Origin: Escherichia coli
GTDB taxonomy: Bacteria; Pseudomonadota; Gammaproteobacteria; Enterobacterales; Enterobacteriaceae
Length of the DNA: 64,000 nt
NCBI RefSeq assembly: GCF_030384885.1
Contig: NZ_CP128613.1
Direction: 5' to 3' (one strand)
The translations under genes were made by a program, and so were the position numbers. Of the stretch, positions 3,784 to 50,018 are shown piece after piece. Position 1 is the stretch's first letter. Every line of letters begins with the position of its first letter. The notes beneath the pieces were generated by a model. The model ran no database searches. It had not been told where the DNA came from and saw only the letters and a program-made list of their open reading frames with translations.

Positions 3784-5151
3784 TTAATCGCAGGCAACAA
3801 TCTTCATCGCCAGGCCACCACGAGAGGTTTCGCGGTACTTGGCATTCATATCTTTACCTGTTTCGTACATGGTTTCGATAACTTTATCGAGGCAGACACG
3901 TGGTTCGCTGGTACGGCGTAGCGCCATACGTGCAGCGTTCACCGCTTTTACTGCCGCAATGGCGTTACGCTCAATGCACGGTACCTGAACTTGTCCAGCA
4001 ACCGGGTCACAAGTCAGACCGAGGTTGTGTTCCATGGCGATTTCCGCCGCGATGCACACCTGCGCCGGGCTTGCGCCTAACAGTTCTGCCAGACCAGCTG
4101 CCGCCATAGAGCACGCCACGCCAACTTCACCCTGGCAACCCACTTCGGCACCAGAAATCGAGGCGTTCATCTTATAAAGAGAACCAATCGCGCTTGCTAC
4201 CAGCAGGTAACGAGCCAGTGAGTTAGCGTTCACTTCGCGGATAAACTTGTCGTAGTACGCCAGCACTGCCGGGATAATCCCGCACGCACCGTTAGTCGGC
4301 GCAGTCACCACGCGACCGCCCGCAGCGTTCTCTTCGTTCACTGCCAGCGCAAACATGTTGATCCAGTCAACAACGGCCATCGGATCAGTGGTGGTTTTAT
4401 CCTGGCTAACCAGCATCCGGCGCAGTGCCGCAGCGCGGCGTGGAACGCGCAGTTTGCCTGGCAAAACGCCTTCGGTGGCAATACCGCGCTCAATACCGCC
4501 ACGCATTACTTCCCAGACGTTCGCCAGGTGCTGTTCCAGTTCTTCTTTGCTGTGCAGCGCCAGTTCGTTTTTCATCATCAGACCAGAGAGTGACAGCCCG
4601 GTCTCCTGACAATGTTTTTGAAGATCGGCAGCGGAACTGTACGGATAAGGAACTTCAACCGGTGCGCTAACCTGCTGACCAAAATGTTCTTCATCAACGA
4701 TAAAGCCACCGCCGATAGAGTAGTAAGTCTGATTGTAAACGACTTTATCGCCCGCCAGTGCGGTAATGCGCATACCGTTTTCATGCAGAGAAAGGTTGTC
4801 GGCATGGAAGTTCATGCACTGATCAACCGGGAACTCCACTTCATGCTGACCATTTGCCAGCATCAGGCGACCATGAGTATTCACATCCTGAATAAAACCA
4901 GGGATGGAATCGATATCCACGGTATCCGGCAGGTTACCCGCCAGGCCCATAATAATGGCGATATCAGTGTGGTGGCCTTTACCAGTCAGAGAGAGCGAGC
5001 CGTACACGTCAACCACCACGCGGGTCACGTCTTTAAGCAGGTTACGGGCAATCAGATCGTCGGTAAATTGTTTACCCGCTTTCATTGGTCCAACGGTATG
5101 AGAACTGGAAGGGCCAATGCCGATTTTGAAAATATCGAATACGCTAATCAT
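3784..5151 (-). CDS. sdaB: L-serine dehydratase (Fe-S, single chain)
   Basis: 455-aa ORF MISVFDIFKIGIGPSSSHTVGPMKAGKQF...; immediately downstream of the serine transporter gene. Confidence 0.9.
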   Translation of the reverse strand: MISVFDIFKIGIGPSSSHTVGPMKAGKQFTDDLIARNLLKDVTRVVVDVYGSLSLTGKGHHTDIAIIMGLAGNLPDTVDIDSIPGFIQDVNTHGRLMLANGQHEVEFPVDQCMNFHADNLSLHENGMRITALAGDKVVYNQTYYSIGGGFIVDEEHFGQQVSAPVEVPYPYSSAADLQKHCQETGLSLSGLMMKNELALHSKEELEQHLANVWEVMRGGIERGIATEGVLPGKLRVPRRAAALRRMLVSQDKTTTDPMAVVDWINMFALAVNEENAAGGRVVTAPTNGACGIIPAVLAYYDKFIREVNANSLARYLLVASAIGSLYKMNASISGAEVGCQGEVGVACSMAAAGLAELLGASPAQVCIAAEIAMEHNLGLTCDPVAGQVQVPCIERNAIAAVKAVNAARMALRRTSEPRVCLDKVIETMYETGKDMNAKYRETSRGGLAMKIVACD

Positions 5152-5208
5152 AGGAAATACATCGCGTTAAAACGGAGGAAGCGCCGCCCGAAAGCGGCGC
5201 GAAAGAAC

Positions 5209-6498
5209 TTAGCTGAACAGGGAGTAGAAGATTGCGGAGATTGCAATCAGACCCATCACGACAACGAATACGTTGCTGATGTGACCGCTGTACTTACGCA
5301 TTGCCGGTACTTTCTGGATTGCGTACATCGGCATCAGGAACAGGATCATTGCGATGATTGGGCCGCCCAGGGTTTCAATCATACCCAGGATGCTCGGGTT
5401 CAGGGTGGCAACAATCCAGGTCGTTACCAGCATGAACAGCGCAGTGATACGGTTCAGCTTGTTGATTTCGATAGACTTACCTTTACCACGCAGAGATTTA
5501 ATCACCATACCGTTGAAGCCTTCACGTGCACCCAGGTAGTGGCCGAGGAAGGATTTGGTGATAGCGATAATCGCGATAATCGGAGCCATCCACGCGATAA
5601 CCGGTGCGTTAAAGTGGTTAGCCAGGTAAGACAGAATCGAGATGTTCTGCTCTTTAGCCGCAGCCAGGTCTGCCGGAGTCAGGCTCAGTACGCAGCTGAA
5701 TACGAAGAACATTACGGTCAGCACCATCATGATGTGTGCGAATGCCAGGATCTTCGAGCATTTCTGTTCTGCCATATCGCCGTACTCTTCACGCTTCGCA
5801 ACGGCGAAAGAAGAGATGATCGGAGAGTGGTTGAACGAGAACACCATGACCGGAATCGCCAGCCACAGGGTCATCCACAGACCGTTGCCGGTTGCCGATG
5901 CAGTGTCCAGAGACAGCGTTTCCAGTGCTGCGCCGTTCCACTGCGGGATCAGGTACAGAGCCAGCAGCATCAGTACACCAACAAACGGGAATACCAGAAT
6001 ACTCATCGCCTTCACGATCATCTGCTCACCGAAGCGAACAATGGTCATCATACCCACAATCAGGATCAGAGACAGAATCGCACGCGGCGGCGGCGTCATA
6101 CCCAGCTGGTGAGACATGAAGCTTTCAACCGTGTTGGTGATTGCCACACTGTAAACCAGCAGGATCGGGTAGATAGCAAAGAAGTAGAGCAGGGTAATCA
6201 GTTTACCTGCACCAATACCAAAGTGTTCTTCTACAACCTCGGTGATGTCTTCGCCTGGGTTTTTACCAGACAGTACGAAGCGAGTCAGGCCGCGGTGAGC
6301 AAAAAACGTCATCGGGAACGCAAGGATAGCCATGATGATCAGCGGGATCATACCGCCAACACCGGCGTTGATTGGCAGGAACAGCACGCCCGCGCCGATT
6401 GCCGTGCCGTAAAGGCCCAGCATCCACATGGTGTCTGTCTTGCGCCATGCACTACGTGAGTCTTTCGACACAATCGTGCTGGTTTGAGTCGTTTCCAT
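5209..6498 (-). CDS. sdaC: Serine:H+ symporter (HAAAP family)
   Basis: ORF (M)[31 protein letters not shown]...; polytopic membrane protein; start probably the second Met. Confidence 0.9.
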
Positions 6499-7054
6499 CA
6501 ATTTCTCCTGGAGGAATGCAAATAATTCAGCTTTTAGCCAGTTCAGCCCGGGAAGGTGCCTGACCGTAAAAATGAAATCTGTCTATCGGCGATGGCTTAA
6601 TCATTTTCCGCCGTAATAATTTGAGGGCGGAAAGATACACACAAGTTATGTATCTATCAGTGATCTTGATCTCAAATACAATAATCTACTTGGAAGATAG
6701 ATAATCTCAACGCTTTACTCTGTAAATCAAAAGTAAAAGAGAATTTAAGGGCAATATTTGCCCATTAAACGACATCTGACCTCTTCCGGGGCGCGCAATA
6801 TATGTAGGTTGAGCTGAAAAAATCAATACTTTTAGTGAATAATGGGGATAATTTATTTTTCATAGCGATAAAATGTGGTTTGTGAAAATAGGGAAACGTT
6901 TGCGTTGCAATATAAATTGTATGACATATTAACTGTGATGATATTTATCGCGTGAGGACGGTAAGAAACATTTATATAACAAATGAAATGAATTGATGAG
7001 TAAGTAACCAAAAACGAGAAAACCCGGCAACAAATGTCACCGGGGAAGGGGAGA

Positions 7055-8419
7055 TTACGTGCAGATTTCGTAGCAAGGGATGTACGCTGAGCCTGGCAAC
7101 TTCATACGATGCTGGGCAACAAAACCCTGTAGCAGGTCGTCCATACGACGCATAATCTCTTTATCGCCGTTGATTTTATAAGGACCAAACTCTTCAATGG
7201 CGCGAATACCGACTTCTTTTACGTTACCCGCCACAATACCGGAGAACGCACGACGTAGATCAGCGGCCAAAACTTCTACTGGCTGATCCGGGTACAGTTT
7301 CAGATTAGCCATGTTCTCGTGAGACGGCTCAAACGGCATTTGCAGATCGGGCGCAATGCGCATTGACCAGTTAAAGCTGTAGGCATCGCCCGTATCGCGA
7401 CGGTTTTCTTTCACCAGCGGCATCGATTTTTTCATCTGACGAGCGACTTCAGCGGCGTCATCAATGATGATGCGATAATGGCGTCGCGCGTTTTCTCCCA
7501 GCGTATGCACGACAAACTCGTCCAGTACGCGGAAGTAGTCTGCGCTCTCTTTCGGGCCGGTGAGGATCAATGGTAAAACCTGATCTTTGTTGGCCGGGTT
7601 CATTAAAATTCCCAGCAAATACAGCAACTCTTCTGCCGTACCCACACCGCCAGGGAAGATAATGATACCGTGAGCGATACGGACAAACGCTTCCAGACGT
7701 TTTTCGATATCTGGCATGATGATCAATTCGTTGACCAGCGGGTTAGGCGGTTCAGCGGCGATAATCGACGGCTCTGTCATACCAATAAAACGACTGTCTT
7801 TGTAACGCTGCTGTGCGTGTCCGACCGCAGCACCTTTCATCGGCGCTTCCATCGCTCCCGGACCACAGCCGGTGCAGATATTCAGCTCACGCAGGCCCAG
7901 CTGATTCCCGACGCGACGGGCATACAAATACTCGTTTTCGTTAATTGAGTGCCCGCCCCAGCAGACCACCATATTTGGCGCTTCACCGACATGCAGTGCG
8001 CGAGCGTTACGCAAGATGGAAAAGACCAGGTTAGTGATGTGGACGGAGTTGTCGAGATTCAGGTTGGGAAAACGAACGGTGTTATGGATTTGCCCGTAAA
8101 CGAAGAGAATGTCACGCAGAACCGCGAACAAGTTGGCCTGCAAAGCGCGGATAATACGCCCATCGACAAAAGCTTCTTCCGGGGGATTAATCAGTTCCAG
8201 CTTTACGCCGCGTTCACGGCGCAGGACGTTAATATCGAAATTTTCAAAACGAGACAGCAATTCTTTGCTGTTATCAGTCAAACTACCGGAGTTCAGTACG
8301 GCAAGTGAACAGTTGCGAAACAGTTGATAGAGGTCGCTGCTGGCGGTGCGTTTAAGCATATCCACTTCCAGCTGCGACAGCATATCCATGGAGCCAAGCG
8401 GGCTAATATGTGTAATCAA
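7055..8419 (-). CDS. ppnN: Nucleotide 5'-monophosphate nucleosidase PpnN (LOG family)
   Basis: 454-aa ORF with the PGGxGTxEE LOG-family motif ([11 protein letters not shown]); position between sdaC and queF. Confidence 0.85.
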
Positions 8420-8530: not shown

Positions 8531-9379
8531 TTATTGCCGAACCAGTCTTGTGGTCGATGGGACAAAATCGCTGTTACTGCGCCACGGGTTAATGTCCAGA
8601 CCGCCACGACGGGTATAACGTGCGTAAACGCTCAATTTCTCTGGCTGGCAGAAGCGTAACAGGTCATTAAAGATGCGTTCCACGCACTGTTCATGGAACT
8701 CGTTGTGATGACGGAAAGAGACCAGGTAACGCAGCAGTTTTTCCCTGTCAATTTGGCGTCCGCGATACTGAATTTGGATCGAACCCCAATCTGGTTGATG
8801 GGTGATCAGGCAGTTTGATTTCAGCAGGTGGCTGACAAGCGTCTCTTCTACTACTTTTTCGCCACTGGTGGCATTCTCCAGATAGTCAGTAGTGAATTCA
8901 TAGTTATCGATAGTGATATCCTGGTTATCAATGCAAGTGCCATTGAAATGACCTATCGGTTGGCCTTCCAGTTCATCAAGACGATATAACGCCACGCTAA
9001 CATTACCCTGGGCGCAAGTGCTTAAGTCGCGCTCCAGCGTCTGACGCACCTCATCCCAGTTATTAAAACGCGTCTGGTTAAAACTGTTGAGATAGAGCTT
9101 AAAACTCTTCGACTCAATCAGATTTGCGCTGGTGTAATCAAGTTCAACATGACCGACGGCGACCTGCGGCAAACCTTTCGCATTCAGCCAGGAAAGTTCA
9201 TATAGCGTCCAGATATCCGTACCATGAAAAGGCAGGTTATCCGCTTTCAGACCCAGCGGATCGCGATTCAGACTACGCGGAACGCCTTGTAGCAGGCTGG
9301 CGTCATAGGTATCCCGGTAATCGGTTGATTTTCCAAGAGTCAGGCCCGCAAGTGCCTGATGGTTTGCATAAGAAGACAT
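8531..9379 (-). CDS. queF: NADPH-dependent 7-cyano-7-deazaguanine reductase
   Basis: 282-aa [38 protein letters not shown]... (two-domain QueF type). Confidence 0.9.
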
Positions 9380-23310: not shown

Positions 23311-23404
23311 TCTGCATAGCTGGATATGGCATCAGCTGTATCCAGCGGTATCTTTTACTCGAAGGTATTACACCTGACAGACCCGCAATTTTCAGGACAT
23401 TCTA

Positions 23405-24408: not shown

Positions 24409-26061
<1,653 letters not shown>

Positions 26062-26133
26062 GTAAAAAAGTTAGAACGGCAACGCGTACCCAGGGTACGC
26101 GTTGTTTGTCTGGAGTTTCAGTTTAACTAGTGA

Positions 26134-27447
<1,314 letters not shown>

Positions 27448-27465
27448 GTCTGACTTTATCTTATT

Positions 27466-27498
27466 TAAAAATGCCAGCCTTCGGGCTGGCATTTTTTA
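27466..27498 (+). terminator. Rho-independent terminator after eno (possibly bidirectional)
   Basis: aaaaatGCCAGCCttcgGGCTGGCattttttat: 7-bp GC-rich stem, 4-nt loop, T-run; the minus-strand TPM gene ends 9 nt downstream. Confidence 0.8.
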
Positions 27499-27506
27499 TG
27501 GTTGAG

Positions 27507-28412
27507 TTACCAGCGACCAGAAGCACCGCCACCGCCAGAAGAACCGCCACCTCCGCTAAATCCGCCGCCACTTGAGCCGCCACCGGAAGAGGATGAAGAA
27601 GAACCTTTTCTTGAAGCTCTTTCTTTACCGAGCGTCTTGTATTTGGCCCGTAGCTTTTTATTAACGATAAGCCAAAAGATAACCAGTGGTACGATCGCAA
27701 AAGGCGTTAACATACCGCAGGCAACGATTAAATTCGTCCATGGTCCTGGCTCGGCAACATAGAGGAATACCATCCCGTAAATTGCGGCAGTGAGAGTTAT
27801 CCAGGGTAAATTCGACGGATCGGTAAAAACAATAAAATATGAAAGCACTGCCAGCAATATAATTACAGCAAGCGAAAATGGGATAGGGGGATTGATACTG
27901 TAATAATTCCCCCTGCCTTCCGGTAATTCACCATTCATCAGAAGTGCGCCGATATTTTCGCTTGCCAGTGTTAACCCCCCCATCAGGTCATCACTTTTGA
28001 AAGCAGGGATTAATATATCACGGATAATCTTTGCCGCTTGCAGGTCGGTAACCACCCCTTCCAGCCCATAGCCGACTTCTATACGAACAGCATGATCTTC
28101 CCAGGCAACCAGAAGTAAAATGCCATCGTTTCGCTGCTTATCTCCCAGTTTCCAGCTATCAAAAACGCGTGTTGCATATTGTTCAATGGTATCGTCTCCG
28201 GTGGATGGCACTATTAATACGGCAACCTGTGCCCGTGTTTTTTGTGTAATATCCTGCAGCTGTTGTGTCAGTGATTGTTGTTCAGACATGCTTAAGGTAC
28301 CAGTAATATCGGTCACCTGTTGGCGCAGCTCCGGCACAGCAATTTGCTGGGCAAGCACAGGAAGGCACCATAAAGTGAGTAGAAAAAGGATTATACGCAT
28401 AACGATCACCAA
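27507..28412 (-). CDS. TPM-domain membrane protein (YgcG-like), paralog 3
   Basis: 301-aa ORF with signal peptide, TPM/DUF477-like region (DITGTLS...VAVLIVPSTGDDTIEQYATRVFDSWKLGDK), transmembrane segments and a Gly/Ser-rich tail ending GGGGASGRW; start overlaps the stop of the upstream paralog. Confidence 0.8.
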   Translation of the reverse strand: MVIVMRIILFLLTLWCLPVLAQQIAVPELRQQVTDITGTLSMSEQQSLTQQLQDITQKTRAQVAVLIVPSTGDDTIEQYATRVFDSWKLGDKQRNDGILLLVAWEDHAVRIEVGYGLEGVVTDLQAAKIIRDILIPAFKSDDLMGGLTLASENIGALLMNGELPEGRGNYYSINPPIPFSLAVIILLAVLSYFIVFTDPSNLPWITLTAAIYGMVFLYVAEPGPWTNLIVACGMLTPFAIVPLVIFWLIVNKKLRAKYKTLGKERASRKGSSSSSSGGGSSGGGFSGGGGSSGGGGASGRW

Positions 28413-29554
28413 CGGTCGGATGAACCGCCACCGCCAGAAGAACCGCCGCCACCGCGGAAAGAGTTTTTCGACGAAGAACGAGAATGAGCATTACGATTCC
28501 CCGTTTTCTTGTTGCTTTTATGCCCTGATCCCAGTTTAAGATTGCCAGTAAATTTGGCCACAATGATCAGCAGAACGATGCCAGCAATGGTTATTGGGCC
28601 GATAAAATGATCAATTAGCCCAATAATTGTTGAGATGAACGCAATATCTTTATTACTGGCGAATACCAGGCACCATCCCACAACAATTATCAGCAGCACG
28701 ACAAACAATGAATTTCGTCCTGATTCACGAACCTGCGGAGCCTTCTTTTGTTTTTTCACTTTAGCGTTTTTATTTTGGGGGGCCAGCATCATAGGAAATG
28801 CGCGGCATATATTAAAAACTACCGCGAGACGCTGCCAGCAGATTGCTGCGAAAAATAAACTAAAACAAACGACCGATACCCGTCGAATGATGACATCGTT
28901 CTGAAAGCAGAAAAACCAGACCATAGGGGTAATCATCGATATCATCCATATGCCAGGCCCTGGATGGGTGGTAAATCGCCAGAGGACAACGATGGCAACG
29001 ATCATCAGCAGTGTCCAGGCAAGACATGGCAGAGAGCGTTGCGGATTAGCAAACAGATGATTGGCTAAAGCATCCAAAGGGCTAAGATTCGCTTTTATAT
29101 AGGTAAACTGTGCGATGCCTTCAATTCCCTGCGTTAACCCGGAGAAGAGATTATTTTTTTTGAATTCCGGTTGCATATGGTAATGAACAATTTGCGCAGC
29201 TTGTTCCGGTGGCAGCATCTCTTCCAGTCCATGCCCAATCTTCATTGACGCCAGCCCTTCCGGCCAAACGACGAGAATTAAGATACCTTCGCCGTACCGC
29301 TTCTCTCCAACAGGTTTCCAGTGATATAACCCGTAGCTTTGCGAGGCTGCAAGTTTAATGTCTTTACCCCCAGTGGTCGGCGTTACCAACACGGCAACCT
29401 GAAAGTGGTTTTGCTGCTCGAGAGTCTGTAATTGTTGAGTTAAAGCAGTTTGTTCTTCTGTCGTTAATGTCCCGGTTAAGTCAGTTACTGAAGGCAATTG
29501 TTCAGCGAATGCCTGGAAACCACATAGCATCAGAAGTAAGAGAAAAATACGCAT
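28406..29554 (-). CDS. TPM-domain membrane protein, paralog 2 (polytopic, most divergent)
   Basis: 382-aa ORF with signal peptide MRIFLLLLMLCGFQAFA, TPM-like region, several hydrophobic segments, tail ...GGGGSSGGGGSSDRW. Confidence 0.75.
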   Translation of the reverse strand: MRIFLLLLMLCGFQAFAEQLPSVTDLTGTLTTEEQTALTQQLQTLEQQNHFQVAVLVTPTTGGKDIKLAASQSYGLYHWKPVGEKRYGEGILILVVWPEGLASMKIGHGLEEMLPPEQAAQIVHYHMQPEFKKNNLFSGLTQGIEGIAQFTYIKANLSPLDALANHLFANPQRSLPCLAWTLLMIVAIVVLWRFTTHPGPGIWMISMITPMVWFFCFQNDVIIRRVSVVCFSLFFAAICWQRLAVVFNICRAFPMMLAPQNKNAKVKKQKKAPQVRESGRNSLFVVLLIIVVGWCLVFASNKDIAFISTIIGLIDHFIGPITIAGIVLLIIVAKFTGNLKLGSGHKSNKKTGNRNAHSRSSSKNSFRGGGGSSGGGGSSDRW

Positions 29555-29568
29555 TTCAATTCCTTTTG

Positions 29569-30507
29569 TTACCAGCGCCCGGAGGCGCCACCGCCGCCAG
29601 ATGAACCGCCGCCGCCGCTGAAATTATCATTGTCAAAAGAGGATGAAGAGGAAGATGACGACGATGATGAAGAACGCCTGGAGGCCGAGTTACTTCTTTC
29701 GTAATGTGACGGTCGGTTGGCACTGCGCATCGAATCCCGAACCTTTTTGCCGAAGGGGGTAAAAGCGATGGCGACAGCCAGGAACGGTGTGGCGAAGCAG
29801 AGTAATGTTGCGAGTACTCCCCAGCTTCCGCCGAAACCTGCTATAGGTAAAACAAAGGCCAGTACAATAGCTGTGAAGCAAATTAGTCCCAGCGTTTTGA
29901 AATATCCTCTGGCGGAAATAAAGGTCAGTACTATTGCCCAGACTAACAAAGCCCACCAACCGTTAAAGGGCAAAGGGTGATCGGTCGGTGTTATCGTTGC
30001 TAAATTATTCCCCGTCAGACGATTATCAATATCGCTTATTCCCTTTTGCAAGCCGCCAGCCAGGTCGCCATTTTTAAATGCCGGAATAATACTGTTGCGA
30101 ATAATTTTCCCGGACTGCGCATCCGTAATAACGCCTTCCAGTCCGTAACCGATTTCAATACGCACGGCCTGATCCTGCCAGGCGACTAACAGTAGAATGC
30201 CATCATCGCGGTCTTTATCACCTGGTTTCCAGCTATCGAATACCCGCGTAGCGTACTGCTCGATGGTTTCATCGCCCGTTGTTTCAACCACTAACACGAC
30301 CAGTTGTGCGTGGCTTTTTTGCGTCAGCTCTTTAATCTGATTGGTCAACGTATTTACTTCATCGTTCGTCAATTTGCCGGTTAAGTCATTCACATACCTG
30401 GGTGATTCAGGCACTGGAATTTGTATGGCAAACACAGATGAACAAAAGAAAGCCATAAGGAAGATAAAATTTCGCACAGGACTTCCTCGCTTAATGAGCA
30501 TTAGCAT
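29569..30507 (-). CDS. TPM-domain membrane protein, paralog 1
   Basis: 312-aa ORF with TPM-like region (DLTGKLT...VVLVVETTGDETIEQYATRVFDSWKPGDK), Ser-rich tract, tail ...GGGGSSGGGGASGRW; start overlaps the lemA stop by 17 nt. Confidence 0.8.
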   Translation of the reverse strand: MLMLIKRGSPVRNFIFLMAFFCSSVFAIQIPVPESPRYVNDLTGKLTNDEVNTLTNQIKELTQKSHAQLVVLVVETTGDETIEQYATRVFDSWKPGDKDRDDGILLLVAWQDQAVRIEIGYGLEGVITDAQSGKIIRNSIIPAFKNGDLAGGLQKGISDIDNRLTGNNLATITPTDHPLPFNGWWALLVWAIVLTFISARGYFKTLGLICFTAIVLAFVLPIAGFGGSWGVLATLLCFATPFLAVAIAFTPFGKKVRDSMRSANRPSHYERSNSASRRSSSSSSSSSSSSFDNDNFSGGGGSSGGGGASGRW

Positions 30508-31093
30508 TCTGGCTAAAATCTATTGTTGGGGCTTTACTCACAGCGGCGACATCATCCGGCAAATAATTTTTCTTCGGTGTGTAATCCATGACTTTTGCGG
30601 TTAACACTGCGGGGAATTTGCGGATAGTGACATTATATTGTTCGATGGCTTTAATATATCTTCCTCGCGCAACGGCAATTCGATTTTCACTTCCTTCGAG
30701 CTGTACCATCAAATTTTGATAGAGTTCCTGGGCCTTTAACTCAGGGTAACGTTCACTAATTATCGTTAACTGACCGAGAGTGCGAGACACCTGCGCCTGA
30801 GCTTGTTGCCAGGTTTGTAATTTTTGTTCATCTCCCGGAGTTTGCTGAAGAGCGCTACTGGCGCGATTAGCCTGACTACGTGCCAATGTTACGGCTTCCA
30901 GTACCTCTTGTTCATGGCTGGAATAACCTTTAATACTGGCGACAAGATTAGGAATAAGATCGGCGCGACGTTGATATTGATTTAATACCTCAGACCAGGA
31001 AGCGTTAACCTGCTCATCATAGGTTTGAATATCGTTATATCCACAGCCTGATAAATTGAAAATAAATATAATTACGATGAATATTCTGAGCAT
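30491..31093 (-). CDS. lemA: LemA-family lipoprotein
   Basis: 200-aa ORF with lipoprotein signal/lipobox (IFNLSGCG) and LemA-like coiled region; first gene of a four-gene minus-strand operon. Confidence 0.8.
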   Translation of the reverse strand: MLRIFIVIIFIFNLSGCGYNDIQTYDEQVNASWSEVLNQYQRRADLIPNLVASIKGYSSHEQEVLEAVTLARSQANRASSALQQTPGDEQKLQTWQQAQAQVSRTLGQLTIISERYPELKAQELYQNLMVQLEGSENRIAVARGRYIKAIEQYNVTIRKFPAVLTAKVMDYTPKKNYLPDDVAAVSKAPTIDFSQNANAH

Positions 31094-31265
31094 GGTTAAA
31101 TCCCTTTTAATTAATTCCTTAAAACATAATACGCCACTTCATTTTATTCTTTATGATCTAATCCACTTTTTGCCTTAAACCTGCCTGTAACAGAATGTTA
31201 ATAAGACATGATTGTTGTGGCAGGATCTGCAATAATTAACAATTATCCACTTCACAGAGAATGCT

Positions 31266-31937
31266 ATGCAGTACCCGATTAACGAGATGTTCCAGACCCT
31301 GCAAGGTGAGGGTTACTTTACCGGCGTCCCCGCCATTTTTATTCGTTTACAGGGATGCCCGGTCGGCTGTGCCTGGTGCGACACCAAACACACCTGGGAA
31401 AAGCTTGAGGATCGGGAAGTCTCCCTTTTCAGCATTCTGGCGAAGACCAAAGAGAGTGATAAGTGGGGGGCGGCGAGCAGTGAAGATTTGCTGGCTGTCA
31501 TTGGTCGTCAGGGATACACCGCGCGGCATGTGGTGATTACGGGTGGTGAGCCTTGCATTCATGATTTGCTGCCACTGACTGACCTGCTCGAAAAGAACGG
31601 TTTTAGCTGCCAGATCGAAACCAGCGGTACTCATGAAGTACGCTGCACGCCGAATACCTGGGTTACCGTATCGCCAAAGCTGAACATGCGCGGCGGCTAT
31701 GAAGTGTTGTCACAGGCACTGGAACGAGCCAACGAAATCAAGCATCCAGTGGGACGCGTACGTGATATTGAAGCACTGGATGAACTACTGGCAACGCTGA
31801 CCGATGATAAACCACGAGTCATTGCACTGCAGCCAATTAGCCAGAAGGACGATGCCACACGTTTGTGCATTGAAACCTGTATTGCGCGTAACTGGCGTTT
31901 ATCGATGCAAACACATAAATATTTAAATATTGCCTGA
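31266..31937 (+). CDS. queE: 7-carboxy-7-deazaguanine synthase (radical SAM)
   Basis: 223-aa ORF MQYPINEMFQTLQGEGYFTGVPAIFIRLQGCPVGCAWCDTKHTW with radical-SAM Cys cluster. Confidence 0.9.
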   Translation: MQYPINEMFQTLQGEGYFTGVPAIFIRLQGCPVGCAWCDTKHTWEKLEDREVSLFSILAKTKESDKWGAASSEDLLAVIGRQGYTARHVVITGGEPCIHDLLPLTDLLEKNGFSCQIETSGTHEVRCTPNTWVTVSPKLNMRGGYEVLSQALERANEIKHPVGRVRDIEALDELLATLTDDKPRVIALQPISQKDDATRLCIETCIARNWRLSMQTHKYLNIA

Positions 31938-32275
31938 TTAAACATTTATAAGCGTTATAAATGGGTGGAACCTGTAAAGACTTCCACTCATTTATATTCT
32001 TTGTCGCCTCTGAAAAACCTCCATTTTGCTCATCCTGGACTAATCATTATCATTCTCTACAAATTCTATGGCGTTAATTTTTCGTTGGAGTGAAAATTAT
32101 TGCGGTAAAGTTTGGTAGATTTTAGTGGGTATAGAGTTATCTAAAATATTTACTTTTTTAATCAATGGATTAAGTGTTCTTTAACATAATGGATGTGTTG
32201 TTTGTGTGATCCTGTAAAGTTGGTAGATTGTGACTGGCTTAAAAAATCATTAATTAATAATAGGTTATGTTTAGA

Positions 32276-33219
32276 GAGTTCCCCGCGCCAGCGGGGATAA
32301 ACCGCAAAAACATGCCTCTAATCGCCTCATATCGCCGAGTTCCCCGCGCCAGCGGGGATAAACCGTGAATTCGCGGTCGTCGGTAGTTATTGTCACAGAG
32401 TTCCCCGCGCCAGCGGGGATAAACCGTTTATATCCCCGATACGCACGACGCGGACCGGGAGTTCCCCGCGCCAGCGGGGATAAACCGCCCCGCCCTCCTG
32501 CACCACGATCGCGCCCTCAGAGTTCCCCGCGCCAGCGGGGATAAACCGCCTTACGCCTGCAACCTCGTGCCACAGTTCATGAGTTCCCCGCGCCAGCGGG
32601 GATAAACCGGTTTTCAGTCCAGCGGCAGCTACGAGGAATCGGAGTTCCCCGCGCCAGCGGGGATAAACCGGATGGTTGAGGGTTATATGATGCCAGTTTA
32701 CGGAGTTCCCCGCGCCAGCGGGGATAAACCGGCAAAAACCGGGCAATCGCAAAAAGGCGTAATGAGTTCCCCGCGCCAGCGGGGATAAACCGACGCTGAT
32801 TATTCCGTACCAGTATTGTGAGGCGAGTTCCCCGCGCCAGCGGGGATAAACCGGATGACTCTGTGGCCTGGGTGGTTACCTGTCTGAGTTCCCCGCGCCA
32901 GCGGGGATAAACCGCCCTGCCCGTTTTGCGGGAGTTCCAATGTTGAGAGTTCCCCGCGCCAGCGGGGATAAACCGCATTATTTTTAGACGGTTGCGGGAT
33001 TGGATTAGAGTTCCCCGCGCCAGCGGGGATAAACCGCGGCCTGGTCGATATCTCGCTGCTAGCGTCAAGAGTTCCCCGCGCCAGCGGGGATAAACCGTAA
33101 GATGATCTCACGGAATTGAACGAACTACGGAGTTCCCCGCGCCAGCGGGGATAAACCGGACACAGAGCGCTGCTATAGCGCCTATGCCAAGAGTTCCCCG
33201 CACCAGCGGGAATAAACCA
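32276..33219 (+). CRISPR. Type I-E CRISPR array: 16 repeats, 15 spacers of 32 nt
   Basis: 29-bp repeat GAGTTCCCCGCGCCAGCGGGGATAAACCG at a strict 61-bp period, starting 32276, 32337, 32398 ... 33191; the last repeat is degenerate (gagttccccgcaccagcgggaataaacca); AT-rich leader upstream at about 31940-32275. Confidence 0.97.
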
Positions 33220-33690
33220 CCATATAACCCGTTATCTCTTTCTCAAGTTTTTATATTAGCAGTACTCGTATTAAGCAACATATCCACGTAACACCTCATG
33301 TTCAAAATAGCTCTCCATATATGAGAAGTTCACAATTATCGATACAAAAAATCAAATTTAATTAAAGTGTTAGTTGTATGATACTTAAATCATTAAGAAA
33401 TTATCATATATTATTTTTTTAATATTGAATTGATGTTTGTTAATTTTTTCTTTAGGATAATGGTTTGTTTTTTAAGCTTATTATTCATTGATTAAGTAAT
33501 AAATCTGGAAGTTTGTCTTTGTTTTGAGGCTAATGAGTGATTTTACATAATCGCCTCTATACGCTGTTGATGAATAGTTCTTATGAATAAAGATATCCAG
33601 TTCATACTTTAAGTGAAAATTGATAAAGTACGATTCGCATAGTCTTTTATTCTAAGGACATCGATTGTAGTTAATATTCCTTGTAAAAAC

Positions 33691-33763
33691 AGGGATAAAC
33701 CGGACTTGTTATAATTCTTGATGTTGTCGAACTTATGTTCCCCGCGCCAGCGGGGATAACCAT
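33691..33763 (+). CRISPR. Degenerate orphan mini-array (partial repeat, one spacer, degenerate repeat)
   Basis: cagggataaaccg + roughly 33-nt spacer + gttccccgcgccagcggggataacc; lies about 470 bp beyond the main array, after an AT-rich leader-like stretch. Confidence 0.7.
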
Positions 33764-33808
33764 TCAGGTATGTTCAGGCCGGGCATTTTCCCGCCCGGCC
33801 TTCCTCAC

Positions 33809-35287
33809 TTACGCATTCGACCAGCTCTGGATCGAATCTGCATTCCCCAACTCACCATGCATCACTTCATACGATTTTTTCAGGATCACATCAGTGTGTT
33901 TGGTTAGGTCTTTGAAAATGCCTTTATTCATCGCGTCGTAGCGTTTGGCATTGCTCTCAATCGGCATAAAGATATCTTTCACGCGAACCATTTTGTCGAC
34001 AGCCGTTGCGTAATCCGGGTATAGCCCCAGACCTACCGCCGTATTAATCGCTGCCCCCAGGCTTGCACAACCGTTAATGGCGTTACGTCGTGCCGGAAGG
34101 TTGAACACGTCGGCAAAAATTTGCATAAACAGATCGCTGTTCGAACCGCCGCCAGTAATGATCACATGTTTCGCAAAGTGATTCATTTCATGACACATAT
34201 TGTCGTAATTGTTCTTCAGCGTCAGCGCCACGCTTTCCAGTATCGAACGATATATCCATGCGTAATCCATGCTGGAATCAAAGCCGATCATAATCCCGCG
34301 TTTGTACGGTTCCCACGGATTGGTCAGCCAGTCCAGCACCGTCATCAGACCATTACAGCCAGGCGGCACACAAGAAGCTTTTTTGTTGAGCAAATCTTCC
34401 GGTGAAAGATCCTGTGCCCTGGCATCCTGAATTAACGACTCGCCTAACATGTCGCGAAGCCAGCTCACCGTCCACATGCCTTTGCGAATACCGTAACCTT
34501 CATACAGCAAGGTTTGCGGAATAGAAGACATAATCGGCCAGTACGCTACCGGATCTTTCGGCAGTACTTTGCCGTTCATCATCAACGCGATGTAAGTGCC
34601 AAGAGAAATTACCGCCGTTTCATCATCCAGTAACCCGGCTCCCAGTGCTTCTACCGGTTTATCACTGGTGGTACAAACAACTGGCAGCCCAGCCGGGAAA
34701 TGTGTCGCCAGCGCGGCTTGTGGTGTGATATGCCCAAGAACAGTGCCCGGCATTTGCACATCAAAAAGCATCTGTCGGGGAATATTAAACTTCTCCATTA
34801 CCGCGGTATCTTCGCTCCATGCCCAGGTCTTATAATCCACCGGCCACTGACCAAAATAGTTGGCGATATTGTCTTTAAACTCGCCGGTTAAACGGTGTGT
34901 CAGATAACCTGAAAAAGAGGTGGCATATGCCACATCAGGATTGGTGTGCTCGTAGGGACGTGTTACGCGTGCATCCTGCCAGCTAATCAACGGCGCAGCT
35001 GGCGTGCCATCGGCTTTCAATAACGCACGGCAGCAACGGATAGATCCCAGACCAATGCCGACAATATCTTCTTTATTCCCGGCAAACTGGCTCATCAAAT
35101 CGTGACCAGCAAAACATAATGATGCCCATAAATCATCGTCAGGATGTTCTGCGGTATCGGCATCTGGAGTGTGCATCGGTTGTAATAAGCCTTTGCCTTC
35201 GCAAACCACGTTACCTTCCAGATCGTACATCACCACTTTTGTGCTCTGACTTCCGCCATCAATCCCTATGATGTATTTTTTCGACAT
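33809..35287 (-). CDS. ygcE: FGGY-family carbohydrate kinase
   Basis: 492-aa ORF MSKKYIIGIDGGSQSTKVVMYDLEG... with FGGY N- and C-terminal signatures. Confidence 0.82.
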   Translation of the reverse strand: MSKKYIIGIDGGSQSTKVVMYDLEGNVVCEGKGLLQPMHTPDADTAEHPDDDLWASLCFAGHDLMSQFAGNKEDIVGIGLGSIRCCRALLKADGTPAAPLISWQDARVTRPYEHTNPDVAYATSFSGYLTHRLTGEFKDNIANYFGQWPVDYKTWAWSEDTAVMEKFNIPRQMLFDVQMPGTVLGHITPQAALATHFPAGLPVVCTTSDKPVEALGAGLLDDETAVISLGTYIALMMNGKVLPKDPVAYWPIMSSIPQTLLYEGYGIRKGMWTVSWLRDMLGESLIQDARAQDLSPEDLLNKKASCVPPGCNGLMTVLDWLTNPWEPYKRGIMIGFDSSMDYAWIYRSILESVALTLKNNYDNMCHEMNHFAKHVIITGGGSNSDLFMQIFADVFNLPARRNAINGCASLGAAINTAVGLGLYPDYATAVDKMVRVKDIFMPIESNAKRYDAMNKGIFKDLTKHTDVILKKSYEVMHGELGNADSIQSWSNA

Positions 35288-49865: not shown

Positions 49866-50018
49866 ATGCTGACAAAATATGCCCTTGTGGCAATCATCGT
49901 ACTGTGTTGTACAGTACTGGGATTCACGCTGATGGTAGGCGACTCGTTGTGTGAGTTGAGTATCAGAGAACGTGGTATGGAGTTTAAGGCAGTTCTCGCT
50001 TACGAATCGAAGAAGTAG
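49866..50018 (+). CDS. hokX: Hok/Gef-family type I toxin (small membrane peptide)
   Basis: ATG at 49866 after GGGAGG gives [50 protein letters not shown] (50 aa); Hok-type TM helix plus the LCE...AYE motif; symbol by position only. Confidence 0.75.

Follow-up and report, generated by a model that had tools for sequence, protein, structure and literature searches.

What occupies the interval between eno and queE in Escherichia coli, where did it come from and what does it do? The question is raised by a 64,000-nt stretch of an E. coli chromosome (assembly GCF_030384885.1, contig NZ_CP128613.1; hereafter the window), which covers the segment from fucP to cysH and to which all coordinates refer. 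In this stretch, a gene for a LemA-family protein is followed by three tandem genes for TPM-domain membrane proteins, designated here TPM1, TPM2 and TPM3. In sequence searches, the window was 100% identical across the query to E. coli strain 2013C-4282, and the gene calls of the NCBI prokaryotic genome annotation pipeline (PGAP) cited below come from the identical RefSeq record. Our analysis revealed that the cluster is an annotated, segregating haplotype and a lineage-specific variant of a widespread module, and not a new kind of system. The slot is organized as follows.

26149-27447, plus strand: eno, one flank of the cluster.
27467-27496, both strands: bidirectional intrinsic terminator common to eno (plus) and the lemA operon (minus); 13-bp hairpin, dG -20.3 kcal/mol, z=-6.4 versus shuffles, T-runs on both strands.
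27507-28400, minus strand: TPM3, 297 aa, from ATG 28400 (PGAP start GTG 28409; longest open reading frame from TTG 28412); Pfam TPM E=2.4e-38.
28406-29554, minus strand: TPM2, 382 aa; Pfam TPM E=2.2e-22.
29569-30477, minus strand: TPM1, 302 aa, GTG start (longest open reading frame from ATG 30507); Pfam TPM E=1.4e-39.
30491-31093, minus strand: lemA, 200 aa; Pfam LemA E=2.1e-48.
31094-31265: divergent queE/lemA control region together with the lemA 5' untranslated region (UTR), 172 nt, 32% GC, delineated by alignment with the region upstream of K-12 yqcG and by a motif scan.
31266-31937, plus strand: queE, the other flank.

The four minus-strand open reading frames (ORFs) were thus recovered where a preliminary description, made from the sequence alone, had placed them, and their LemA and TPM profile E-values are far beyond chance. 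The overlapping junctions proposed in that description hold only in part. The 17-nt overlap of lemA and TPM1 exists for the longest ORF only; the lemA stop is followed by GCGAGGAAGTCCT and then by the likely TPM1 start, GTG 30477, leaving a 13-nt spacer. This GTG is preceded by a GAGGAA Shine-Dalgarno sequence, is also the start chosen by PGAP and is an ATG in O157. The spacer between TPM1 and TPM2 measures 14 nt and includes AAGGAA, and TPM2 and TPM3 either share a 4-nt GTGA overlap (PGAP start 28409) or stand 5 nt apart (ATG 28400). Inside the cluster, promoter- and terminator-like matches were not commoner than in shuffled sequence (promoter-like matches, 6 versus 6.6). The scan used overlooked the obvious terminator after TPM3, and that hairpin was confirmed by folding. 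An Rfam scan of 26000-34500 gave no match at gathering score. Taken together, the spacers (13, 14 and -4 or +5 nt), the absence of an excess of internal signals and the strong hairpin terminator after TPM3 are consistent with a single tightly packed operon, as originally proposed, and this is the natural reading of the spacers and the single terminator.

Regarding the encoded proteins, LemA is predicted to be a lipid-anchored periplasmic four-helix-bundle protein. It matches Pfam PF04011 over the full length of the model (positions 1-149 of 149), and its residues 22-178 are homologous to the solved four-helix bundle of TM0961 (PDB 2ETD; phmmer E=7.4e-33). The N-terminus, MLRIFIVIIFIFNLSGC followed by GYND, reads as a signal peptide with the lipobox LSGC and predicted lipidation at Cys17. 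The string LSGC followed by GYN is kept in essentially all of the 80 nearest proteobacterial LemA relatives. The lipobox with its following Gly is present, as are the signal peptides that the preliminary description stated for the three TPM proteins.

The TPM proteins appear from their sequences to be inner-membrane proteins of the YgcG type, with a cleavable signal peptide and a periplasmic alpha/beta TPM domain (Pfam PF04536, matched in all three). Each consists of an AxA-type signal peptide, an acidic TPM domain, hydrophobic helices and a basic Ser/Gly-rich tail, which corresponds to the YgcG-type layout, also seen in BA41, of signal peptide, TPM domain, transmembrane (TM) segments and Gly-rich C-terminus. 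The tails end in the hallmark GGGG(A/S)S(G/D)RW, namely GGGGASGRW in TPM1 and TPM3 and GGGGSSDRW in TPM2. Based on hydropathy and charge, three TM helices are predicted for TPM1, five for TPM2, which also has a Lys-rich cytoplasmic loop, and three for TPM3. The charge distribution obeys the positive-inside rule and suggests that the TPM domains are periplasmic and the tails cytoplasmic. All three paralogs have kept the conserved Asp in their N-terminal metal-site loop.

TPM1 and TPM3 had been described as close copies, which is not the case, as they are only 46% identical over their full length. TPM2 was correctly recognized as the more divergent and more polytopic paralog; it shares about 34% identity with TPM1 or TPM3, in its N-terminal part only and chiefly in the TPM domain. 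TPM3 sits at the position of K-12 ygcG and matches PDB 7TBR (E=1.5e-22) and BA41 (5ANP, E=3.9e-20) in phmmer searches. In order to place the paralogs relative to the family, 46 well-conserved TPM columns were taken from 69 non-Escherichia YgcG-type proteins, in which the columns of the C-terminal tail are 96-100% conserved. TPM2 differs from the family in 22 of the 46 columns, TPM1 in 11, K-12 YgcG in 10 and TPM3 in five, and the departures of TPM2 include conserved Arg, Asp and Glu positions.

The altered core of TPM2 is nevertheless modelled as a TPM fold. In the AlphaFold2 model, its TPM domain has predicted local confidence (pLDDT) values of 76-91 except for one loop (block 81-90, mean 57), followed by five low-confidence helices and a disordered tail. 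Foldseek returned BA41 (5ANP) as best match, with a TM-score (target) of 0.80-0.83, and matches to 5ANP, 2KW7, 7TBR and 3PVH at probability 1.00, which points to the alpha/beta TPM fold. The match list comprises BA41, PG0361, 7TBR, TLP18.3, BA42, Psb32, cg2496, LMTP1 and a subunit of the mycobacterial CIII2CIV2 supercomplex. For the membrane domain, where the model is of low confidence, the Foldseek search gave no credible match, and homology searches found full-length TPM2 homologs in Escherichia only.

Selection was assessed by dN/dS from E. coli and E. albertii alleles, with dS reaching up to 0.8. The ratios were 0.03-0.10 for lemA, 0.17-0.23 for TPM1, 0.11-0.21 for TPM3 and 0.26-0.27 for TPM2 overall, the last being composed of 0.13-0.16 for the TPM domain and 0.5-0.8 for the membrane part. 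Since the ratios lie between 0.03 and 0.27 in all four genes, these are under purifying selection and hence functional, and the unusual TPM domain of TPM2 is subject to constraint as well. TPM2 is a fast-evolving paralog that is constrained but remodelled.

The cassette also differs from its surroundings. Against the O157 alleles, dS is 0.17-0.28 in the cassette versus 0.06-0.07 in pyrG and eno and 0.14 in queE, and nucleotide identity is approximately 90-95% in the cassette compared to 97-100% in the flanks; therefore, the cassette alleles are older than the backbone around them. GC content is 42.3% in lemA, 48.7% in TPM1, 46.0% in TPM2 and 47.1% in TPM3, as opposed to 51-52% in eno, pyrG and queE. 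Both GC and GC at third codon positions (GC3) are under the flank values in all four genes, with the minimum in lemA (GC3 36.8%). The AT-richness initially noted for the TPM2 segment is thus real but not special to it, as the whole cluster is AT-rich and lemA is the extreme.

Concerning the wider family, 80 genomes carrying the nearest LemA relatives were surveyed, and 69 loci had enough downstream sequence to be judged. A YgcG-type gene with the GGGGASGxW tail directly follows lemA in 64 of these 69 loci. In 55 of the surveyed loci there is, in addition, a TPM protein of about 170 aa without a hydrophobic segment and with a conserved NELPDxP C-terminus, presumably cytoplasmic and encoded by the third gene after lemA, for example at 8532-9056 of one compared stretch. 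No further conserved neighbour was found around lemA among the surveyed loci. We take the canonical lemA/TPM pair to be COG1704/COG1512. The Escherichia cluster resembles the canonical proteobacterial lemA-ygcG-small TPM arrangement in having a LemA with LSGC followed by GYN and then, on the same strand, a TPM protein that has a signal peptide, TM helices and a GGGGASGxW end. It differs in carrying three tandem YgcG-type paralogs, in lacking the gene for the ~170-aa soluble TPM protein, and in TPM2, with its two additional TM helices and altered core. Papers that encounter YgcG-family genes call their function unknown, and thus the view that LemA/TPM pairs are widespread and functionally unassigned is well founded.

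More than one YgcG-type gene was found in E. coli, E. albertii and Entomohabitans only, among the surveyed loci. In a neighbour-joining tree of the TPM domain, TPM1, TPM2 (on a long branch), TPM3, K-12 YgcG and both Entomohabitans copies form one clade, beside Buttiauxella and Erwinia. The three paralogs thus stem from duplication within an Escherichia/Entomohabitans lineage, replacing one YgcG-type gene and one small soluble TPM gene.

The distribution within E. coli was determined by BLAST counts over 5426 complete genomes. At a coverage of at least 80%, the whole four-gene interval was present in 1102 genomes, TPM2 in 1102-1104 and lemA in 1451-1454, while the K-12-type yqcG-ygcG segment was found in 3929 (72%). 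O157:H7, including EDL933-type strains, has the four-gene layout, with the RefSeq names 'LemA family protein' and, three times, 'TPM domain-containing protein'. Hence, the layout is present and annotated in reference strains, with no known function attached to it. Other E. coli haplotypes read lemA-TPM1-121-aa hypothetical protein or lemA-TPM1-TPM3-YgcG-like, and at least four haplotypes segregate overall. E. albertii also has the four-gene layout, and Entomohabitans carries queE-lemA-TPM-TPM-eno in the same slot. In Klebsiella spallanzanii, the queE-eno slot holds lemA (78% identical), a TPM1-like gene and a TPM2-like gene without the TPM domain, followed by eno. An early impression that the cluster is absent from other Enterobacteriaceae was therefore wrong, given its presence in the same slot of K. 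spallanzanii and Entomohabitans. The locus had been proposed to be an expansion or a strain-specific insertion. The expansion is supported, at the level of the lineage, by the single TPM clade, and strain specificity is contradicted by the counts in E. coli, by O157:H7 and E. albertii and by the partial versions in the other two genera. IS4 or IS1 insertion sequences (IS) are inserted in or next to the locus in several E. coli genomes, and ygcG appears in a preprint's list of replicated insertion hotspots for mobile elements.

The status of TPM1 requires a comment. In the identical genome, RefSeq/PGAP marks it as a pseudogene ('missing C-terminus', 29806-30477). In the window, the ORF is unbroken over 302 codons and terminates in the hallmark tail of the family, which makes the pseudogene call look like an artefact of annotation; it may be connected with the truncated 224-aa O157 protein. 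In O157:H7 (strain 7386WT; around 5400 of the compared stretch), TPM1 does carry a single TTA-to-TGA nonsense change at codon 225. As the reading frame beyond it is otherwise kept, this truncation looks recent.

As stated in the preliminary description, K-12 has a single ygcG beside eno. From eno onwards, homology between K-12 and the window covers the final ~80 nt of TPM3/ygcG, as far as 27588, and resumes at 31059, inside codon 12 of lemA. The resumed homology concerns the following feature.

31059-31130: lemA 5' end and UTR matching yqcG, which lies at 3994-4134 of the compared K-12 stretch (alignment).

YqcG is a protein of 46 aa, named by NCBI a cell envelope stress response protein. Its start ATG falls in the lemA 5' UTR, where the window counterpart reads ATG and then TTT TAA, and its residues 14-23 (KTFTKIIFIF) are in frame with LemA residues 3-12 (RIFIVIIFIF). 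Because the lemA 5' UTR and the first 12 codons are retained in frame, yqcG appears to be a relic of lemA; we found no paper stating such a derivation. An internal deletion is no more than suggested, as the alignment of the 3' half of yqcG with the 3' end of lemA scored no better than the best shuffle. The K-12 locus (b2778 region) shares with the window the eno-queE slot, the divergent control region, the Gly-rich tail and the terminator, and its YgcG belongs to the same paralog clade. On the other hand, K-12 lacks LemA, has yqcG instead, and the identity of its YgcG to TPM1 and TPM3 is no more than 37-42%. The relic, together with the use of the same slot in E. albertii, Entomohabitans and K. 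spallanzanii, argues that the slot is old and the K-12 state derived. The four-gene state is thus the more complete, and probably the older, version of the eno-queE slot in Escherichia, and yqcG-ygcG a collapsed derivative, which reverses the gain relative to K-12 that had first been supposed.

A possible route for such changes is offered by the tail-coding sequences, for which a repeat search returned three copies of a direct repeat (67-75% identity) at the 3' ends of the paralogs.

27489-27560: Gly-rich tail-coding direct repeat at the 3' end of TPM3.
28388-28459: the same repeat at the 3' end of TPM2.
29551-29622: the same repeat at the 3' end of TPM1.

In the haplotype without TPM2 (lemA-TPM1-TPM3-YgcG-like) the junction falls inside these repeats, and the K-12 homology also stops, at 27588, within the tail-coding part. 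The repeats mark recombination joints, which is among the new points of this analysis, and unequal recombination at them is a plausible cause of the copy-number variation.

With respect to expression, approximately 95 nt of the control region next to queE are identical to K-12. The homologous K-12 region is bound by phosphorylated PhoP (PMC4974570) and by sigma-S RNA polymerase (PMC4447067). A motif scan of the window returned one candidate site.

31176-31192: PhoP-box-like TGTTACAGGCAGGTTTA, with 2 mismatches.

Searches of the control region for CpxR, sigma-E and RcsB motifs gave weak matches only. Regulation of lemA by PhoP and sigma-S may carry over from K-12.

As for function, we favor, at a rough probability of 0.45, the explanation that the LemA-TPM operon encodes a set of envelope accessory or assembly factors facing the periplasm, with LemA as the scaffold. 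According to this explanation, the TPM domains would act as accessory, assembly or repair factors that dock on inner-membrane protein complexes from the periplasmic side and may bind a divalent metal, and LemA would provide a membrane-associated scaffold. The paralogs could be specialized or hetero-oligomeric subunits, and TPM2 may be a neofunctionalized one in which much of the ancestral TPM core is gone. The divergent control region next to queE, whose K-12 counterpart responds to PhoP, sigma-S and envelope stress, would drive expression. Several relatives suggest such roles. Psb32, TLP18.3 and LMTP1 act in the assembly or repair of photosystem II on the lumenal side, and some of them bind metal; the TPM protein CcoZ is required for cbb3 oxidase activity; and a TPM-fold subunit is present in the mycobacterial CIII2CIV2 supercomplex. 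Furthermore, in Firmicutes TPM proteins are paired with PspA and a chaperone-like role has been suggested, and LemA-like domains have been described as membrane-associated scaffolds or remodellers. The likeness to Psb32/TLP18.3 and to the mycobacterial subunit lies in a membrane-attached TPM fold on the extracytoplasmic (lumenal or periplasmic) side, and that to MamQ and TM0961 (2ETD) in the LemA four-helix-bundle domain. However, E. coli has no photosystem, and LemA here is anchored through its lipobox and stands in no magnetosome context.

A number of points weigh against this explanation. In searches of NCBIfam, the Psb32/TLP18.3 equivalog NF047379 (cut-off 160 bits) gave 32.7 bits for TPM1, 34.3 for TPM3 and no hit for TPM2, and the MamQ equivalog NF040966 (cut-off 250 bits) gave 91.2 bits for LemA. 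Membership in either equivalog was rejected on these scores, far below the cut-offs, and the analogy therefore rests on fold and domain family only. The residue at the +2 position of LemA is Gly, and according to the usual lipoprotein sorting rule, +2 Gly would direct LemA to the outer membrane, apart from the inner-membrane TPM proteins. The proposed regulation is transferred from K-12, in which a different gene lies downstream. Phosphatase or ATPase/ADPase activity has likewise been reported for TPM proteins. A literature search by guessed O157 locus tags returned no paper. In addition, 72% of E. coli live without LemA and the O157 TPM1 has a nonsense codon; therefore, the module must be dispensable in many settings. 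More generally, no functional study was found in the literature for ygcG or yqcG, and 'LemA' combined with 'TPM domain' returned incidental mentions only.

The reported enzymatic activities lead to an alternative that we consider unlikely, namely that the TPM proteins are metal-dependent phosphatases or nucleotidases (ATPase/ADPase-like) forming a periplasmic phosphohydrolase set, which would act on periplasmic nucleotides or phospho-compounds, with the paralogs differing in substrate. BA41 of Bizionia argentinensis (5ANP), for which ATPase/ADPase activity was reported, is the closest solved homolog with reported biochemistry and has the same architecture, comprising a hydrophobic leader, TPM domain, TM segment and the Gly-rich tail GGGGASGGW, although it belongs to another phylum and has one TM segment in the alignment. 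The retention of the metal-site Asp in all three paralogs also fits an enzyme. However, the activities reported for TPM proteins are low, and in recent structural papers these proteins figure as assembly factors. Moreover, TPM2 is without many of the conserved polar core residues (R, D, E), yet it is under purifying selection, and the enzymatic explanation leaves no role for LemA or for the conserved cytoplasmic tail. Considerably less credible is the idea that the cluster is a decaying remnant, an island acquired horizontally long ago that is now disappearing and has no further importance for the cell. The low GC and GC3, especially of lemA, the collapse of the cluster in 72% of genomes, the nonsense codon of O157 TPM1, the IS insertions in some strains and the high dN/dS of the TPM2 membrane part could all be read in this way. 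What speaks against decay is that all four ORFs are intact here, that dN/dS remains at 0.03-0.27 across E. coli/E. albertii alleles despite dS of up to 0.8, and that both the hallmark tail and the lipobox are preserved.

The proximity of a CRISPR array, pointed out in the preliminary description, could hint at a variable envelope barrier or immunity cassette, in which polymorphic paralogs modulate the entry of phage DNA, colicins or contact-dependent toxins; this would account for the allelic divergence and for the nearby arrays, and we regard it as highly improbable. The array lies between queE and ygcE.

32276-33219: type I-E CRISPR array with a 61-nt period and about 15 spacers, as estimated by length.

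The distance of about 1.2 kb was accurate: the lemA start is 1.18 kb away, on the other side of queE. Consistent with such a cassette are the elevated dS of the cluster relative to pyrG, eno and queE, the segregation of at least four haplotypes, the location of type I-E arrays on different sides of the cluster in E. coli and K. spallanzanii, and the role of the locus as an insertion hotspot for IS and mobile genetic elements. Nevertheless, none of the four proteins matched a PADLOC-DB 2.0 family at E<=0.1, the periplasmic domains have dN/dS values below 0.3 and give no indication of diversifying selection, and the lemA-ygcG pair is conserved on the chromosome across Proteobacteria within unrelated surroundings. 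The E. coli array also stands at the same place, beside queE, in K-12, which has no cluster. No significance of the proximity was thus demonstrated, and a known anti-phage defence system was rejected, the PADLOC scan of the four proteins being without matches.

The assembly-factor explanation may, finally, be set beside a bolder one, which we consider quite doubtful. LemA-YgcG might form a trans-envelope membrane-maintenance system, as the periplasm-facing counterpart of the PspA-YdjH (TPM) pairing, in which the conserved cytoplasmic GGGGASGxW tail would be a docking or signalling motif that, in canonical systems, docks the small soluble TPM protein. Escherichia would then have swapped the soluble partner for additional membrane paralogs, which would be shuffled by unequal recombination between the tail repeats and persist as a balanced polymorphism. 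If this were true, the loss of LemA from K-12 would explain how the module escaped K-12-centred functional genomics.

Some further features of the neighbourhood were recorded. No cas genes were found in the inspected window annotation (1-50000). The ORFs listed through the CRISPR array (e.g., 32393-33111) are translations of the repeats and not genes, and the array is followed by a very AT-rich stretch (GC 0.28) at ~33250-33750. In K. spallanzanii (4537-8200 of the compared stretch), the type I-E array lies between the cluster and eno, on the side opposite to that of the E. coli array. The gap between relA and mazG is only 94 nt (23311-23404), and the strain seems to be without mazEF there, the toxin-antitoxin pair that K-12 presumably carries between these genes. 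A gene of the Hok/Gef family is annotated directly after cysH (49866-50000), where we take K-12 to have iap and the CRISPR-cas locus.

The pairing of LemA with a YgcG-type TPM protein recurs across the surveyed Proteobacteria, with related proteins in other phyla. A possible phenotype handle for the YgcG family is provided by Cupriavidus necator, in which two independent laboratory evolution studies, one on halotolerance and the other on divalent metals/glycerol, saw residue 253 of a YgcG-family protein switch between G and W. For E. coli, the analysis provides an evolutionary origin for the small K-12 stress protein YqcG, which would descend from lemA. Given that the complete module is carried by about a fifth to a quarter of E. 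coli strains, with K-12 keeping only a remnant, the question of its function can be tested directly in non-K-12 E. coli.

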